IMG/VR virus record: IMGVR_UViG_2778261176_000016
Direction: 5' to 3' (one strand)
Source of the DNA: a virus
Lineage: Duplodnaviria; Heunggongvirae; Uroviricota; Caudoviricetes
DNA: 26,817 nt
Within the stretch, counting starts at the first letter, position 1. Each line of letters opens with the position of its first letter. The notes under the pieces were generated by a model that saw only the letters and a list, made by a program, of their open reading frames with translations, made no database searches and had not been told where the DNA came from. Positions 541-19,157 of the stretch are shown here, piece after piece. Both the position numbers and the translations under genes were made by a program.

Positions 541-1578
541 TTAACGCTTATCCGCCACCAGTTTGAGCGCGTGTTCCAGCACATTAATGTCTGCACCCGC
601 TTTATGGGCATTTTCACTTAAATAACGCCGCCACTGCCGCGCGCCAGGAATACCCTGGAACAAGCCCAGCATATGCCGGGTAATATGGCCGAGATACGTA
701 CCCTGGCTGAGTTCACGCTCAATGTACGGATACATGGCGCGCACTACCGCCACCGGATCGGCATCGGTATCCGAGGAACCAAAAATCTCTCGGTCTACCG
801 CCGCCAGAATCCCCGGATTCTGATACGCCTCGCGCCCGACCATCACGCCATCCATATGTTGCAAATGCGCTTTAGCTTCTTCCAGCGACTTGATACCACC
901 GTTAATCGACATCGTCAGATGCGGAAAGTCACGCTTCAGTTGATACACACGCGGATAATCGAGCGGCGGGATCTCACGGTTTTCTTTCGGACTTAACCCA
1001 GAAAGCCAGGCTTTACGTGCGTGGATGATGAACATCTCACACTCACCTTTGCCGGAAACGGTGTTGATGAAATCGCAGAGAAATTCATAGCTGTCCTGAT
1101 CATCGATGCCAATACGCGTTTTCACCGTCACCGGAATCGACACCACATCGCGCATCGCTTTCACGCAGTCGGCAACCAGCTGCGCATTACCCATCAGACA
1201 CGCACCAAACATGCCGTTCTGCACCCGGTCAGACGGGCAGCCGACATTCAGGTTGATCTCATCATATCCGCGCGCTTCTGCCAGCTTCGCACACTGTGCC
1301 AGCGCCGCCGGATCGCTACCCCCGAGTTGCAACGCTACCGGATGTTCTTCTTCACTGTACGCCAGGTAATCACCTTTACCGTGAATAATCGCCCCTGTGG
1401 TCACCATTTCGGTATACAGCAACGTATTGCGGGAAAGCAGACGCAGGAAATAACGGCAATGTCTGTCCGTCCAGTCAAGCATAGGAGCAATGCTAAACCG
1501 AGAATTCCAGTAAACACCAGTTTTTTCAGGCATCACGCTGGTTTGATTAATTTTTTGTGTTTCATGATTATCGTGCAT
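541..1578 (-). CDS. dusA: tRNA-dihydrouridine synthase A
   Basis: 345-aa ORF with the Dus signature ([31 protein letters not shown]) and ATG at 1578-1576. It is divergent from the integrase 88 bp away, the arrangement expected for dusA-targeting elements. Confidence 0.9.
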
Positions 1579-1666: not shown

Positions 1667-2764
1667 ATGGCGTACTATAACATAGAGAAACGACTAAAAT
1701 CCGATGGCACACCACGCTATCGCTGTAATGTGATTATCAAAGAAAAAGGTGTTATCACTTACAGGGAAAGCAAAACATTCCCTAAACATGCTCATGCCAA
1801 AACATGGGGCACACAGAAAGTGATGGAATTAGATCTATATGGCATTCCATCATCAAATGCAGTTGACGGACTTACAGTCCGTGACTTACTACACAAATAT
1901 TTAAATGACCCAAATGCCGGAGGTAAAGCAGGCCGTACTAAAAGATATGTGCTGGAACTGCTTATGGATAGTGACATCTCCGCGATCAAACTATCTGAAC
2001 TGACAGAAAATGACGTAATTGAACATTGCAGGCTAAGAAACAACGCTGGTGCAGGTCCAGCTACAGTTAGCCACGATGTTAGTTATCTTGGCAGTGTTCT
2101 GGATGCTGCCAAACCTGTATATGGAATTAATTACACATCAAACCCAGCAAAAGCCGCTCGTCCATATCTACTTAAACTTGGTTTAATTGGTAAATCAAAT
2201 CGTCGTAATCGTAGACCGGCATCTGATGAACTGGACATGCTCATTGAAGGTCTTCAACAACGATCTACACATAAATGCTCAAAAATTCCGTTCGTTGATA
2301 TCCTCAAATTTTCTGTGTGGTCATGTATGCGAATCGGTGAAGTATGCCGATTACGATGGGAGGATCTCGATCAGGAACAAAAATCCATACTCGTAAGAGA
2401 TAGGAAAGATCCACGTAAAAAGGAAGGCAACCATATGAAAGTAGCCTTGCTTGGGGAAGCCTGGGATATCGTCCAACGACAACCCAAAAAATCAGAATTC
2501 ATTTTTCCATATAACAGCACTTCTGTTACTGCGGGATTCCAGAGGGTAAGAAGCAAATTAGGTATTAAAGATCTGCGATACCATGATTTGCGTAGAGAAG
2601 GGGCAAGTCGCTTATTTGAGGCTGGTTTTAGTATTGAGGAAGTCGCCCAGGTTACAGGGCATCGTTCATTAAACGTGCTATGGCAGGTATATACCGAACT
2701 GTATCCGAAATCTTTACATAATCGTTTTGAAGAGCTCCAAAGGAGCAGAAATAAGACCTCTTGA
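1667..2764 (+). CDS. int: Tyrosine-type site-specific integrase (dusA-targeting class)
   Basis: 365-aa ORF; C-terminal catalytic region contains R...HDLRR...GH...Y (DLRYHDLRREGASRLFEAG...VTGHRSLNVLWQVYTELYP). GAGG Shine-Dalgarno 8 nt upstream of the ATG. Position next to the dusA 5' end. Confidence 0.9.
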   Translation: MAYYNIEKRLKSDGTPRYRCNVIIKEKGVITYRESKTFPKHAHAKTWGTQKVMELDLYGIPSSNAVDGLTVRDLLHKYLNDPNAGGKAGRTKRYVLELLMDSDISAIKLSELTENDVIEHCRLRNNAGAGPATVSHDVSYLGSVLDAAKPVYGINYTSNPAKAARPYLLKLGLIGKSNRRNRRPASDELDMLIEGLQQRSTHKCSKIPFVDILKFSVWSCMRIGEVCRLRWEDLDQEQKSILVRDRKDPRKKEGNHMKVALLGEAWDIVQRQPKKSEFIFPYNSTSVTAGFQRVRSKLGIKDLRYHDLRREGASRLFEAGFSIEEVAQVTGHRSLNVLWQVYTELYPKSLHNRFEELQRSRNKTS

Positions 2765-2790
2765 CACTGTTTATCCATACAGTTAAAAAT
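2761..2790 (+). promoter_or_regulatory. Sigma70-type promoter for the dinI-like gene (-35 TTGACA at 2761-2766, A/T-rich -10 about 17-18 bp downstream)
   Basis: Consensus TTGACA read directly, overlapping the integrase stop codon; TAAAAAT at 2784-2790 serves as the -10. Confidence 0.5.
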
Positions 2791-2792
2791 AA

Positions 2793-2812
2793 TACTGTAT
2801 ACAAACACAGTA
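2793..2812. promoter_or_regulatory. LexA (SOS) box TACTGTATACAAACACAGTA
   Basis: Perfect CTGT-N8-ACAG palindrome with flanking TA/TA, immediately downstream of the -10 and 14 bp upstream of the dinI-like start. Confidence 0.65.
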
Positions 2813-2825
2813 TAGAGGGACTTTT

Positions 2826-3074
2826 ATGCGTATTGAAATCTGCATAGCCAAAGAAAAAATGACTAAAATGCCAACCGGTGCTGTGGATGCGTTAAAGGAA
2901 GAATTAACCCGACGCATCAGTAAACGTTATGACGATGTAGAGGTGATCGTAAAAGCCACCAGCAACGATGGCCTTTCTGTTACACGCACCGCAGATAAGG
3001 ATTCTGCAAAAACTTTTGTTCAGGAGACTCTGAAAGATACCTGGGAATCTGCTGACGAGTGGTTTGTTCACTAA
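2826..3074 (+). CDS. dinI: DinI-family DNA-damage-inducible protein
   Basis: 82 aa; MRIE.IAK...GA.DAL..EL.RRI...LSV...[14 protein letters not shown] matches the DinI family throughout. AGAGGGA Shine-Dalgarno. Confidence 0.85.
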
Positions 3075-3322
3075 TTAACACGTAAAATCGGTAACGGCTG
3101 GAAATCATTCAATACTCGCACTATCGAAAGTTCGCCAGCCAACCGCAGCGCGTTCTTGCATACGACGTGGCTGCGGTCTCAACTCCGTCCCCCACCAATC
3201 ATGATTGGGCAGTACCAGTACAGCACTAGTAAAAACTGGAAATAAGCAGTCTCAGCAAAATACCGGCCAGACGGTGAGAAGACAAAAAAGATTCGCAAAG
3301 TAGCCGCGGCCCTTAGTGACAT

Positions 3323-3348
3323 GAAATCCCGCTATACGGGCTTTTTTG
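3323..3348 (+). terminator. Weak intrinsic terminator (CCCG-CTATA-CGGG + TTTTTTGT)
   Basis: Read directly: short 4-bp GC stem followed by a T6 run, about 250 nt downstream of the dinI-like gene. Confidence 0.35.
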
Positions 3349-3422
3349 TATCTGCACACGATTGATTATTAGGTCCGTATAGCTAATAGTGGTCTTAACC
3401 TACATATAGAATCAGAGACTTT

Positions 3423-4118
3423 ATGAAAAAGGAAATACTCAAGGCTCTTTGCCCTACATGCGGTGGGTTACGTAACTGCACTGTGCATGGGAAGCTAACC
3501 ACTAGCTGGGAGGATTCCCAATATCCAGTTTATGGGTACCATTACCATCACCTACTCCAATGCAATGGCTGTGATACTGTCTTCTATCACCACAACGAAC
3601 ACTTCAGTGAGCATACTACCCACGAATATCGTGATGGTGAATTTGTAGAAACGCCTATAGATATGATCACTACCTATCCTGCCGCTGAAACATTTCAAGC
3701 TCCGATATGGTTATCCAAGCTTGAATCAGTTGATCGTCAGCTCTTTCAAATATTTAATGAAATGTATTCTTCATATACTTCTGACCATTTCATTCTTTCG
3801 TCCATCGGTTTACGGACGATTTTTGATCGAACTGCTGAACTGTTACAAATTCACCCCGGTTTGCCGCTTGGTGAAAAAGTTGAAAAATTAAAACAAGATG
3901 GAGTCATAGGCGACACTGAGGCATGCGTTATATCTTCAGTAATTGATGCAGGAAACGCCGCCGCACATCGCAGTTGGAGCCCGAATAAAAGTGAGTTCGA
4001 ACAAATGCTAGAAGCTATAGAAAGTTTTGTCCAAAGAACTATCTTGGGCAAAAAATCACTTGAACATATAACCAAACAACTCCCACCTCGGGTTACAAGA
4101 CCTAAAAATAGTGCATAA
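3423..4118 (+). CDS. Hypothetical protein: N-terminal 4-Cys zinc ribbon (CPTCGG...CNGC) and C-terminal helical domain with a GNAAAH motif (possibly DUF4145-like)
   Basis: 231-aa ORF in an AT-rich segment between the SOS module and the tail-fibre end. The only long plus-strand ORF besides int and dinI. No family confidently recognised. Confidence 0.7.
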   Translation: MKKEILKALCPTCGGLRNCTVHGKLTTSWEDSQYPVYGYHYHHLLQCNGCDTVFYHHNEHFSEHTTHEYRDGEFVETPIDMITTYPAAETFQAPIWLSKLESVDRQLFQIFNEMYSSYTSDHFILSSIGLRTIFDRTAELLQIHPGLPLGEKVEKLKQDGVIGDTEACVISSVIDAGNAAAHRSWSPNKSEFEQMLEAIESFVQRTILGKKSLEHITKQLPPRVTRPKNSA

Positions 4119-4144: not shown

Positions 4145-4540
4145 TTATGGTTTACTTGCTACAGGGAATTTTTTATACACCGTTGAAATACCCAGATCAT
4201 AAATCAGTGCGACTTGCTGCTGATATATTCCCGATTCAATCAACCTGCCAGCCTGCTCCCATTGTTCTACTGTCAGCTTTGGCTTTCGCACACCGTTCCT
4301 CCCTTCTTGTCGTGCTGCGGCAAAGCCCGCCCTAGTACGTTCGACAATAAGCTCTCGCTCCATTTCAGCCAAGGCACCCATCACATGAAAGAAAAAGCGC
4401 CCCATTGGTGTGCTGGTATCAATTAAATCAGTCAGACTACGAAAGTTGATGCCTCGTTCGCGCAACTCCTCAACCAGAATGACCAGATGCCGCATACTAC
4501 GCCCCAGCCGATCCAGCTTCCAGACAACCAGTGTGTCACC
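4145..4540 (-). pseudogene. N-terminally truncated Gin/Pin/Cin-type serine DNA invertase
   Basis: From GDTLVVWKLDRLGRSM.HL...ELRERGINFRSLTD.IDTS.PMGRFFFHVMGALAEMERELI.ERT.AG..AAR..G..GGR.PKLT...WEQAGRL the ORF matches Gin-type invertases. The first ~55 residues, including the catalytic Ser region (VRVSTxDQ), are absent and replaced by unrelated sequence. Confidence 0.6.
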
Positions 4541-4583
4541 TGCCGATAATGTCACAACTGACTGGCGGGTGGAATTAATGCTT

Positions 4584-4706
4584 GGTGATATCAGCAGTAC
4601 AGATAAAGAAAAACTATCTGCCTGGATAGAATACAAAAAAGAAGTAAAAGCCGTCGACACTTCGACGGCACCTGAGATTAGCTGGCCTGAACTGCCGGAG
4701 GCGTAG
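4584..4706 (+). pseudogene. Remnant of an inverted second tail-fibre-assembly gene (C-terminal ~40 codons only)
   Basis: Plus-strand reading ...GDISSTDKEKLSAWIEYKKEVKAVDTSTAPEISWPELPEA aligns without gaps to the C-terminus of the intact Tfa on the other strand (...GRLKDEELAQYNLWLDYLDALDLVDTSSAPDIEWPTPPAV). The two are convergent with overlapping 3' ends. Confidence 0.45.
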
Positions 4707-5085
4707 GCCATTCAATATCTGGCGCACTGGAGGTATCCACCAGATCCAGTGCGTCCAGGTAATCCAGCCACAAATTATATTGCGCCAGTTCCTCGTCTTT
4801 CAGACGACCAATAGCCGCTTTACCGGGCCACTGCTTGCTGTTAATAAAATCATTTGCAGCACGTATGCGTCCTTCTTTTTCGAGTTCTGCTTCCTGGATT
4901 AACTGTTCTTTAGTTTTCTCAGGTTCGGGAGGGGCTGTGAAATTATTTCCGTCATAGATCCATCCAATATCAACTGCAACACCAGAGATATTAACTGCCT
5001 TAAAATCGGCAAACATATCTCCTGCACCATCCCAAACAACGATATTAACAACAATATTGTTTTTAATTAGTGCGTATCTGTTCAT
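4678..5085 (-). CDS. tfa: Tail fibre assembly protein (Tfa/U-type chaperone)
   Basis: N-terminal IKNNIVVNIVVWDG and C-terminal VDTSSAPDIEWP motifs. Start taken at the ATG at 5085, which overlaps the tail-fibre stop (TAATG). Confidence 0.8.
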   Translation of the reverse strand: MNRYALIKNNIVVNIVVWDGAGDMFADFKAVNISGVAVDIGWIYDGNNFTAPPEPEKTKEQLIQEAELEKEGRIRAANDFINSKQWPGKAAIGRLKDEELAQYNLWLDYLDALDLVDTSSAPDIEWPTPPAVQAS

Positions 5086-8141: not shown

Positions 8142-8686
8142 GCCTCCATCGCTTTATCAGGTTTGTCGGTGTTACTGCCCTGACCGTTCTCTCTGTGACG
8201 ATGCCCGTTATAGGCAAGCCGCATCGCTGACATGGTGGTGCCGCTGGAGTCGCACAGGTCTTTCACCTGTCCGGTCACTTCCAGGTCCATTTCAAAACGT
8301 GCTTTAGGTGAATTGCGAAACGTGATCGTTTTACCTGCACCGTCCACCACGATCCCCTCCCGGGTCAGCGTCACGGACTGCCCCTGATCGTCATAGACCG
8401 CCACCTCACCCGTCTGCAGCCCTTTCAGGCGGTAGCGCCGGTCCGACACCGTAACAACCACCGCATGAGAACGGTCGCCATCCGGAAACAACACCACCGC
8501 TTCCGCACCGCTGTTTGCCCTTGCGGTAAAACCGTAGGGTTCAAGATGTTCAACCCCGGCTTTGGGTTCACCGGCAATCAGGGACACATCCACGGTCTGA
8601 CATTTCGTGGCGGCACTGATGCTTTTCACCACGGCCCGCCCAATCAGGCCGAGGAGTTGTCGCTGCATGGCTTCAATCGCCCTCAT
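8138..8686 (-). CDS. Baseplate assembly protein V / spike (Mu gp45-like)
   Basis: 182-aa ORF in the conserved position downstream of the hub gene. Confidence 0.75.
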   Translation of the reverse strand: MRAIEAMQRQLLGLIGRAVVKSISAATKCQTVDVSLIAGEPKAGVEHLEPYGFTARANSGAEAVVLFPDGDRSHAVVVTVSDRRYRLKGLQTGEVAVYDDQGQSVTLTREGIVVDGAGKTITFRNSPKARFEMDLEVTGQVKDLCDSSGTTMSAMRLAYNGHRHRENGQGSNTDKPDKAMEA

Positions 8687-17927: not shown

Positions 17928-19157
17928 TCAACCACCAACGCTACCTTTCCCCACCAGCGCTTTAATGGCAGAGGTGTCTTCCAGGATACAGTCAAAACGA
18001 TGGAAGGCCAGAAAACCGGTCTGATCATATTCCGCGTAACGCTCAACCAGGCGTTTAAGAATCATGTATCGCACACGACGGATAATGAAGCGATCAAAGT
18101 CACCACAGAACATGAATTTTTTACCCGCCCCGATATCATCAATTTCCTGATCAATGACATACGGTACATTCAACACTGAAGCAGGTGCCACACCAACAAT
18201 ATCCGGCAACCATAAAGGACGTCCCTGACCGTCTTCCATCTCACTGATCAGTTTCAGCGTATTATCGTTAAACGCCAGGCGGAATTTCGGTCCGCGACGA
18301 TATGCAGGATCAATGCTGTGTTTCAGAGCCAGAATTTCCTGCCACTTCACCGCATTTGCCGCGGCAGTCTGTGTTGTGCCGGTCACTGATGCTGCCAGCC
18401 CTTTGGGTTGTTTAGGCGTACCAGCCCCCGTCCCCTGAATCAGATAACGGGCTTCACCACGACCAATACGTTCAGCAATGCGACGGGCAAGATAAGCTTC
18501 CATATCGATCGCACTGTCCTGCAGCAACTCATTAGACACACGAATTATTTTCGATGTCATTTTGAGCGCCCCAAGGCTTCCCATACCGAAATCGGTGTCT
18601 TCTTCACCGGCTTCTTCATTTTCGCCCAGCAGAACACCAACTTCGGAAGTACCATCAGCTGTTGCCCACTCCATAGTGCGACCGTCAGAAGTGGTCAGAA
18701 TCTGCGCCACACTGGCGATGCCACCGTAGGATTTCATCTTCTCAACAACTTTCGCCAGGAATGTTTCTGGTACGGTATATCCGCCCTTTTCATCCTGAGC
18801 TACACCCTGGGCACGAAGTTCACGCAACGCCTTTCGTTCTTCTGATGTCAGCTCACTGGCACCGTGACGCATCCACTTATCAAAAACCTGAGCTCGTTTC
18901 TCATCCTGTTGCGGATTGTTTTCCGGATCAAGATTCTGACGCTGCTCTTCCTCATTGCTTTCAATGTACGCCTGATCCTGACGACGCAGTTCTTCTTCGC
19001 GTGCAATTCGTTCATCAAGCGCTTCCAGTTCGGATTTTGCTTTGTTCCACTCAGTGCGCTGCTCTTCCGTCCATGCGTTATCACCAATTTTTTCATTCAG
19101 GGCGCGCATGTCAGTTGCGATAGTATTACGTTTCTGTTTCAGTTCATGCAGTTTCAT
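17928..19157 (-). CDS. Major capsid protein, HK97 fold
   Basis: 409 aa with an N-terminal coiled-coil delta-domain-like region (MKLHELKQKRNTIATDMRALNEKI...) followed by the capsid body. Located after the prohead protease. Confidence 0.9.
   Translation of the reverse strand: MKLHELKQKRNTIATDMRALNEKIGDNAWTEEQRTEWNKAKSELEALDERIAREEELRRQDQAYIESNEEEQRQNLDPENNPQQDEKRAQVFDKWMRHGASELTSEERKALRELRAQGVAQDEKGGYTVPETFLAKVVEKMKSYGGIASVAQILTTSDGRTMEWATADGTSEVGVLLGENEEAGEEDTDFGMGSLGALKMTSKIIRVSNELLQDSAIDMEAYLARRIAERIGRGEARYLIQGTGAGTPKQPKGLAASVTGTTQTAAANAVKWQEILALKHSIDPAYRRGPKFRLAFNDNTLKLISEMEDGQGRPLWLPDIVGVAPASVLNVPYVIDQEIDDIGAGKKFMFCGDFDRFIIRRVRYMILKRLVERYAEYDQTGFLAFHRFDCILEDTSAIKALVGKGSVGG

Follow-up and report, generated by a model that had tools for sequence, protein, structure and literature searches.

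A prophage dinI-like cassette with two predicted LexA operators, located beside the integrase gene of a dusA-integrating prophage

The stretch of DNA that is analysed here (IMG/VR virus record IMGVR_UViG_2778261176_000016, Caudoviricetes), which at its full length of 26,817 nucleotides (nt) is referred to as "the window", opens with dusA (541..1578, - strand), followed by the gene of a tyrosine integrase (1667..2764, + strand), as seen in the list of open reading frames (ORFs) and in the Pfam matches; the remainder of the window is prophage, with a Mu-like contractile tail and with lambdoid lysis and packaging genes. Our subject is located directly after the integrase gene: a short gene for a DinI-like protein, preceded by a promoter that carries two putative operators of the SOS repressor LexA. 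Judging by its sequence, the segment 2758-3177 is a self-contained moron that comprises a promoter of its own, two operators, the gene, a 3' untranslated region (3'UTR) and a terminator hairpin; we refer to it as "the cassette".

Promoter and LexA boxes of the dinI-like gene

The elements that are located between the end of the integrase gene and the end of the dinI-like gene are the following:

2761..2766, + strand: -35 hexamer TTGACA (consensus), from the sequence and the promoter scan
2765..2784, no strand: LexA box 1, CACTGTTTATCCATACAGTT, with the core CTGT-N8-ACAG at 2767-2782, from the pattern search; heterology index 5.77
2785..2790, + strand: -10 hexamer AAAAAT, after an 18-nt spacer, from the promoter scan; invariant in 37 unique promoters
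2793..2812, no strand: LexA box 2, TACTGTATACAAACACAGTA, with its core at 2795-2810, from the pattern search; heterology index 2.82
2815..2819, + strand: Shine-Dalgarno sequence GAGGG, 6 nt 5' of the ATG, read directly from the sequence
2826..3074, + strand: dinI-like gene, 82 amino acids (aa), from Pfam, structure matches and PHROG 189

A preliminary description of this DNA, made from its letters, had reported a TTGACA hexamer overlapping the integrase stop, an A/T-rich -10 element, one perfect LexA operator and a dinI-like ORF after it. The hexamer is present, with the integrase stop codon TGA (2762-2764) located inside it; so are the -10 element, at 2785-2790, and the ORF, whose product matches Pfam DinI with E=1e-19. 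The account of the operator is correct in part: the site at 2793-2812 is real and its arms are palindromic, but it is not perfect, since the 20-mer has three central mismatches to TACTG(TA)5CAGTA, and it is not alone, as the second box at 2765-2784 had been overlooked and taken as spacer.

Box 1 fills the whole spacer between the -35 and the -10, contacting both hexamers; the A/T-rich stretch TTAAAAATAAT comes after it and before box 2. Box 2, in turn, starts 3 nt past the -10 and extends over the site at which transcription should begin, which we place at about 2797-2799. The two predicted operators lie, in other words, on the core promoter and on the predicted start of transcription, at a distance of 28 bp from centre to centre, with 13 nt between the end of box 2 (2812) and the ATG (2826); in diverged copies of the cassette, the Shine-Dalgarno sequence has a purine-rich equivalent, GGAGGG. 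A consensus scan has returned TTGACA and AAAAAT with an 18-nt spacer (10 of 12 consensus matches); we take the promoter for a strong one of the sigma-70 type. The -10 can also be read in another register, TAAAAA at 2784-2789 with a 17-nt spacer, and in the phage mEp460 (JQ182728) the promoter is annotated as TTGACA-N17-TAAAAA, at a position equivalent to 2761-2789 of the window; we prefer the AAAAAT register, because AAAAAT never varies in 37 unique copies while T2784 does. The idea that the boxes might serve an antisense promoter has been dropped, since a scan of 2500-3600 gave no site on the minus strand.

Only two matches to CTGT-N8-ACAG occur in the 26.8-kb window, against 0.25 expected from shuffled sequences, and box 2 is the sole site of the window within three mismatches of TACTG(TA)5CAGTA, where none is expected. 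The strength of the boxes has been estimated by a heterology index, calculated with the Berg-von Hippel/Lewis formula on the 18 E. coli operators that are tabulated in PMC3009722; the published matrix of this index was not found in the literature searched, and the rebuilt matrix differs from the original of Lewis et al. 1994, so that its absolute values are not interchangeable with the original ones and should be read as a ranking. Scoring with a LexA matrix, a check that the preliminary description had proposed, places the site that it had named (2.82) and the box that it had missed (5.77) inside the range of proven SOS operators: the 18 real operators span 0.58-12.82 when each is left out in turn (mean 6.65), with recA at 7.44, lexA at 6.43 and sulA at 6.05 in the same matrix, and the box of the chromosomal dinI, ACCTGTATAAATAACCAGTA, falls between the two boxes of the window (3.7 in-sample, 4.95 with leave-one-out). 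The next best site of the window has an index of 13.95. Simulation of 60 windows yielded 0.017 sites per window that score as well as box 1 and none that score as well as box 2; in the near-identical phage SKA5 (37.5 kb), the dinI boxes are the only LexA-type sites of the genome with an index below 10. By these scores, both candidate operators appear comparable to proven E. coli SOS operators, beyond what chance would be expected to produce.

The conservation of the promoter has been followed in a sample of the cassette gene that comprises 80 IMG/VR viral contigs (among the matches listed), four genomes and annotated phages, from 100% down to 37% protein identity; a scan of species-representative genomes has returned four loci, all in Escherichia or Shigella. 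Among 37 unique promoters of the 82-aa type, none of the six columns of the -10 and none of the eight columns of the box 2 arms is variable, and in the box 1 arms only two of eight are. Variable columns are found at 11 of the 15 other positions of the promoter and 5' untranslated region, at all 10 positions 5' of the -35 and at 60 of the 83 third positions of the coding sequence. This pattern has the appearance of a phylogenetic footprint, falling on the box arms and the -10 while the neighbouring positions drift. Both boxes are also kept in P-EibC, with its only 63% identical protein and unrelated upstream DNA, as well as in cdtI, PhiR12_2 and Stx2c phages.

The DinI-like protein and the extent of the cassette

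The 82-aa product scores 70.9 bits against Pfam DinI (PF06183; cut-off 24.2), with residues 16-80 matching profile positions 1-63 of 63. In a phmmer comparison with the structures of E. coli DinI in the Protein Data Bank (PDB), 1GHH and 7YWA, it is matched over residues 1-81 (E=3.7e-13), with 46% identity in BLASTP, and it shares with E. coli DinI the C-terminal helix pattern ...TWESAD(D/E)WFV. It also matches PHROG 189, "RecA filament binding protein DinI", a profile of 151 positions of which it covers the second half only (71-149). A single-sequence AF2 model of moderate confidence (pLDDT 77) has the order beta-alpha-beta-beta-alpha, with strands at 2-8, 39-45 and 50-53 and helices at 17-34 and 58-80; its only significant matches in the PDB are 1GHH and 7YWA (E=1e-5, TM 0.64-0.68).

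In the cryo-electron microscopy structure of RecA with DinI, a hydrophobic pocket formed by L13, L21, W71, W77 and F78 of DinI receives F203 of RecA, while an acidic patch of E24, E69 and D76 also contacts RecA (PMC9926225). The hydrophobic residues align to M15, L23, W73, W79 and F80 of the window protein and the acidic ones to E26, D71 and E78, i.e. all eight RecA-contact residues are kept, five of them identical and three conservatively replaced. By its sequence, predicted fold and RecA-contact residues, we assign the window protein to the DinI family.

Two further elements complete the cassette, and a third is located beyond it:

3075..3141, + strand: conserved 3'UTR with an imperfect hairpin at 3096-3140, from folding and nucleotide diversity
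3142..3177, + strand: terminator hairpin CCGCAGCGCG...GCTGCGG, -18.8 kcal/mol, from folding
3328..3347, + strand: short GC hairpin CCCG-CTATA-CGGG, then C and T6, from the sequence; also flagged by the scan, on the - strand

The 3'UTR (about 65 nt) is found in most copies regardless of the downstream DNA, and its nucleotide diversity, 0.040 in 38 cassettes, is only mildly lower than that of the third positions of the coding sequence (0.067). In Klebsiella, a small RNA derived from the dinI 3' end, DinR, pairs with ftsZ and represses it (PMC10907235); a similar targeting of ftsZ by the 3'UTR of the cassette has been considered and rejected, as its duplex with E. coli ftsZ (-60..+30) is equalled by 57% of shuffled sequences. 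A scan of the whole window against Rfam, at gathering thresholds, gave no match.

As far as folding can tell, the hairpin at 3142-3177 is the putative intrinsic terminator of the cassette. When 17 variants were folded one by one, all 17 had a hairpin at this place, of -14 to -23 kcal/mol and with differing stem sequences (CCGCAGC/GCTGCGG, CCGTGGC/GCCGCGG, CCGCGGT/ACCGCGG and CCGCAGTA/TACTGCGG), and about 10 of the 17 have a T-run after it, e.g. TTTTTCTTTTT in mEp460. In the window copy, the stem is not followed by a T-run (TCTCAACTCC), which we attribute, for this copy and its nearest relatives, to a mosaic junction located directly 3' of the stem; without the T-run, some read-through toward the DUF4145 gene (3423-4118) is possible. 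The GC hairpin at 3328-3347, outside the conserved cassette, could possibly act as a back-up terminator ahead of that gene, although the evidence for this is weak.

The limits of the cassette are also visible in other phages: where the left-hand neighbour is different, homology to the window starts at 2755-2764, just before the -35, and on the right it ends in most copies at 3145-3184, mostly at 3165-3184, so that the promoter travels with the dinI-like gene into other contexts. In the window, the flanking genes are int and DUF4145; mEp460 has int and stf there, the cdtI phage has orf31 and cdtC, and in BP-4795 a neighbour is an effector-like gene. The preliminary description had placed the dinI-like gene next to the integrase; the adjacency is real, but since the cassette stands elsewhere beside unrelated genes, we regard it as an accident of mosaicism that implies no functional pairing. 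Of 5426 complete E. coli genomes, 1831 (about a third) contain the cassette, at up to seven places per genome, with 4-5 copies in STEC or O157 strains, and it is also found in 101 GenBank phage records, which include Stx1a, Stx2a, Stx2c, cdtI and mEp460 phages; on the evidence of these matches, its hosts appear to be many unrelated lambdoid phages. In records of Stx2c and Stx1a phages, where the double operator is intact, the dinI-like protein gives a tblastn match 258 nt long rather than 246, a length that suggests 12 inserted nt within the gene.

Regulation of the cassette and alternative explanations

We consider it likely that the cassette is a LexA-repressed, damage-induced moron for a protein that binds the RecA filament, with a net role that is most likely that of a brake or timer on RecA-dependent cleavage. 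That the gene encodes a LexA-repressed modulator of RecA had been proposed in the preliminary description, and the proposal is borne out in silico by the operator scores, the overlap of the operators with the promoter, the footprint, the protein family and the precedent of the Gifsy prophages.

With the anatomy of the cassette, the quality of its operators, its conservation and the family of its protein established in silico, the LexA occupancy, the timing of induction, the binding to RecA and the sense in which induction is affected are what we infer, in the following course of events. In an undamaged lysogen, dimers of host LexA on box 1, in the spacer, and on box 2, at the start, would keep RNA polymerase out, and LexA at either box alone should suffice for this; because there are two operators, each at least as near to the consensus as those of recA and lexA, tight repression is predicted, and the promoter would be induced only once the LexA pool is deeply depleted. 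Upon DNA damage, RecA filaments would cause LexA to cleave itself and the promoter would open; the DinI-like protein would then bind in the groove of the RecA filament and stabilise it, and, as its level rises, it would compete with the co-protease substrates, i.e. LexA, UmuD and the CI-type repressors. That level could climb far, given up to seven copies of the cassette per genome.

The groove, L2 loop and basic patch of RecA that DinI occupies also serve LexA, UmuD and lambda CI (PMC9926225). In the close relatives SKA5 and SEC470, the domain matches of the prophage repressor are HTH_3 and Peptidase_S24, i.e. it is of the CI-type, self-cleaving kind. The shared groove and the S24 repressor of the relatives are the reasons for which we favour a brake or timer on the cleavage of the repressor and of UmuD.

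Several observations weigh against this interpretation, or narrow it. Box 1 is degraded in BP-4795 and absent in a Klebsiella relative, which has a single box, so that one box can evidently suffice; the boxes lie 27 to 29 bp apart, depending on the copy, which makes a strict helical phasing, and with it obligatory cooperative binding, unlikely. The window protein scores 73 bits against the NCBIfam DinI equivalog (NF007893), whose cut-off is 111, and is therefore a phage-borne paralogue rather than an orthologue of the chromosomal DinI; the target of such a paralogue could differ from that of DinI. The biochemistry of E. coli DinI is itself two-sided: filaments are stabilised, yet the groove for co-protease substrates is occupied. 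Non-polar deletion of the dinI homologues of Gifsy prophages left induction unchanged (PMC3121763, PMC8072944) and, by analogy, the role of the cassette in induction may be small or absent; the Gifsy repressors, however, are not cleaved through RecA. No experiment on the cassette was found in the literature searched, where neither of the exact operator strings was matched.

The two sides of DinI biochemistry also admit a protein with the opposite effect: under the same regulation, it would mainly stabilise filaments and thereby sustain or boost the RecA-dependent cleavage of the repressor. The window protein retains all of the DinI residues to which this stabilisation is due, which keeps the accelerating role in serious consideration; we nevertheless hold it to be rather unlikely, as DinI sits on the very groove, L2 loop and basic patch that are used by LexA, UmuD and lambda CI, and a high dose from several copies of the cassette should compete with those substrates. 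Much less credit is due to an arrangement of the Gifsy or 186 type, where the LexA-controlled transcript would matter for an antirepressor and the dinI-like gene would be a passenger. Its models are the following: in the operon dinI-antirepressor-irsA of Gifsy-1/2/3, the small antirepressor alone triggers induction; Tum of phage 186 is an antirepressor fused to a DinI-like half; and Gifsy-type copies (mEp237, SEN34, Klebsiella and Aeromonas phages) have an ORF of 73-82 aa and a DUF1367-type gene just 3' of the dinI homologue. At 3075-3422 of the window, by contrast, the plus strand has ORFs of 20-32 aa only, none of them of the size of an antirepressor; the conserved cassette stops at the terminator hairpin, about 100 nt past the stop codon; the next gene is DUF4145, not DUF1367, and is itself missing from SKA5 and mEp460; the window protein is DinI-like across all of its 82 aa; and the self-cleaving S24 repressor of the relatives needs no antirepressor. 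We regard this arrangement as very improbable. Even less probable, to the point of being barely credible, is that the boxes are relics or chance palindromes and the promoter constitutive or inactive: it is compatible with the fact that direct evidence of binding or expression for the cassette was not found in the literature searched, but the chance expectation is far too low, and no positions of the promoter vary less across the 37 variants than the box arms and the -10.

A further alternative leaves the promoter as described and changes the protein that uses it. Close relatives of the prophage encode a 108-aa protein that consists of a LexA DNA-binding domain only (SKA5 8484-8810, - strand; SEC470 11510-11836), matching Pfam LexA_DNA_bind with E=1.7e-18 and having no S24 cleavage domain; its gene, placed by synteny about 3 kb past the end of the window, lies in the nin region with dam and rusA on either side, and the recognition helix of the protein reads RSVNAAVEHL, where that of E. 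coli LexA reads RSPNAAEEHL. By its sequence, such a protein could be able to bind LexA boxes and would not be cleavable via RecA. The gene is found in 61 phage records of GenBank, and at least 585 IMG/VR stretches contain it, compared with 211 for the cassette. The boxes might then be used chiefly by this LexA look-alike and not by host LexA alone; it would re-repress or in some other way control the dinI-like promoter, together with the SOS boxes of the host, after host LexA has been lost and while the lytic programme is running. What speaks for it, besides the presence of the gene in SKA5 and SEC470 and the LexA-like recognition helix, is that SKA5 has no good LexA-type sites other than the dinI boxes, that the cassette accompanies the gene in at least 30 of the 50 GenBank phage records that have the latter, that eight of nine records with an identical DinI-like protein carry the 108-aa gene, and that there is a precedent in gp6 of GIL01, a truncated LexA homologue that works on a promoter where LexA boxes stand in tandem (PMC6182141). 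Nevertheless, we find it doubtful: the gene is outside the window and its binding to the boxes is conjecture; it is far commoner than the cassette; SfV has it, and no dinI-like gene is annotated in that phage; SfII and SfIV have it too, and neither is among the cassette matches listed; many Stx1a phages that bear the cassette are absent among the 60 of its 61 records that were listed; and near-identical Stx2c records make the counts of co-occurrence too high. The extension of this idea, that the tandem boxes and the uncleavable LexA-domain protein form an SOS sub-circuit owned by the phage, is more doubtful still: host LexA would silence the cassette in the lysogen and DNA damage would switch it on; once the early operon is on, the LexA mimic would take the LexA boxes of phage and host, and the SOS response would be reset or redirected in a way that RecA could not reverse. 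SfV itself has one strong LexA-type box at 34170-34189 (TACTGTAAAAATAAACAGTG, index 5.26), located at the start of the DNA methyltransferase gene orf48, downstream of Q.

Returning to the damage-induced RecA-filament binder, the cassette would be an ordinary, widespread and well-conserved SOS-controlled moron, as its sequence and distribution suggest. It is found on many phages that carry Shiga toxin or cytolethal distending toxin, often in several copies per E. coli genome; if it does modulate the co-protease activity of RecA, it would alter the induction of toxin prophages by SOS-inducing antibiotics as well as the strength of SOS mutagenesis in lysogens. Its two-operator layout predicts a very tight repression and a late induction. 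Otherwise, it is a routine addition to the LexA-controlled accessory genes of mobile elements.

Prophage setting and comparison with known systems

The integration module that precedes the cassette is represented by the following feature:

1667..2764, + strand: tyrosine integrase of a dusA-integrating prophage, from the ORF list and Pfam Phage_integrase (E=1e-20)

The stretch 2600-3450 recurs, with about 98.7% identity and again at this dusA site, in 33 complete E. coli genomes, and the dusA-integrase arrangement is likewise annotated in E. coli T309.Ta3; the prophage is close to the phage SKA5, which is SfV-like. The insertion point of the prophage is at the 5' end of dusA (541-1700 of the window). 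In the SKA5 genome, a 123-nt fragment of the 5' part of dusA (18055-18177) is located just upstream of int, and in SEC470 a partial dusA pseudogene (174-278) lies at the apparent far end of the prophage; both fragments fit the pattern that is expected of dusA-specific integrases.

Downstream of the cassette, the DUF4145 gene (+ strand) encodes a protein of 231 aa with N-terminal CxxC motifs, which matches PHROG 1305, "DNA binding protein"; it sits between the cassette and an invertase ORF, is present in the 33 E. coli genomes and is absent from SKA5 and mEp460. As the dinI terminator has no T-run here, this gene might receive SOS-dependent read-through. The defence models of PADLOC gave no match for either the DinI-like or the DUF4145 protein. 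The invertase ORF (4145-4711, - strand), of the Pin/Hin type, matches an intact homologue from residue 54 on with 97% identity, while its residues 1-53, where the catalytic serine region should be, are an unrelated sequence; this 5' stretch overlaps, on the opposite strand, a 98-aa ORF (4410..4706) that we take, by its sequence, to be a tail-fibre-assembly-like C-terminus. We consider it probable that the invertase is inactive, in which case the tail-fibre segment would stay frozen.

The cassette itself has been deposited repeatedly, as gp21 ("DinI-like protein") of mEp460, orf30 of the cdtI phage, H0001 of VT1-Sakai and dinI of Stx1 and Stx2 phages: the DNA is essentially the same and the proteins are 92-100% identical to that of the window. 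The LexA boxes are unmarked in the annotations of the deposited copies that we have compared, and papers on Stx phages and on horizontal transfer speculate on these "DinI" genes from the name only. With the chromosomal dinI of E. coli, the window gene shares the fold and length of the product, 46% identity, the RecA-contact residues and a LexA box near the start codon; it differs in being a paralogue on mobile DNA, with an extra operator in the promoter spacer.

Two other phage systems resemble parts of the arrangement. In phage 186, a LexA-repressed promoter, p95, likewise drives a DinI-like sequence, the C-terminal half of Tum, but the window protein is without the N-terminal antirepressor half, and the route through the S24 repressor would be expected for induction. 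GIL01 has tandem LexA boxes in its promoter P3 and, in gp6, a phage protein that consists of a LexA DNA-binding domain only; it differs in being a tectivirus of Gram-positive hosts, without a repressor of its own, where gp6 activates a late promoter (PMC6182141).

The closest proven relative is the dinI operon of the Gifsy prophages, by which a LexA-controlled prophage dinI has already been established as a principle. In Gifsy-1/2/3, the LexA box of the dinI homologues is needed for mitomycin-dependent activation, mitomycin C leads to accumulation of the tagged protein, and nalidixic acid induces the genes 14- to 23-fold (PMC3121763, PMC8072944); the key product of the LexA-controlled operon dinI-gfoA/gftA-irsA is the downstream antirepressor (Lemire 2011, PMC3121763; Merida-Floriano 2021, PMC8072944). 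A Gifsy-style antirepressor gene has been sought on the plus strand of 3075-3422, where no such gene was found among the 20-32-aa ORFs; neither an irsA/DUF1367 gene downstream nor a location in the nin region is seen, as DUF4145 comes next and the cassette stands between int and the tail-fibre genes. What the two have in common is a prophage DinI homologue located directly 3' of a LexA box that overlaps its promoter. The Gifsy type, however, has a product of 77 aa with about 42% identity to that of the window, is located in the nin region, and has one box overlapping the -10 (TATACTGT), a terminator upstream and, downstream, an ORF of 73-82 aa or small antirepressor gene with irsA/DUF1367, whereas the type of the window has a product of 82 aa, is located at the int/att/tail-fibre end, carries two boxes in E. 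coli and forms a single-gene unit with a putative terminator of its own.

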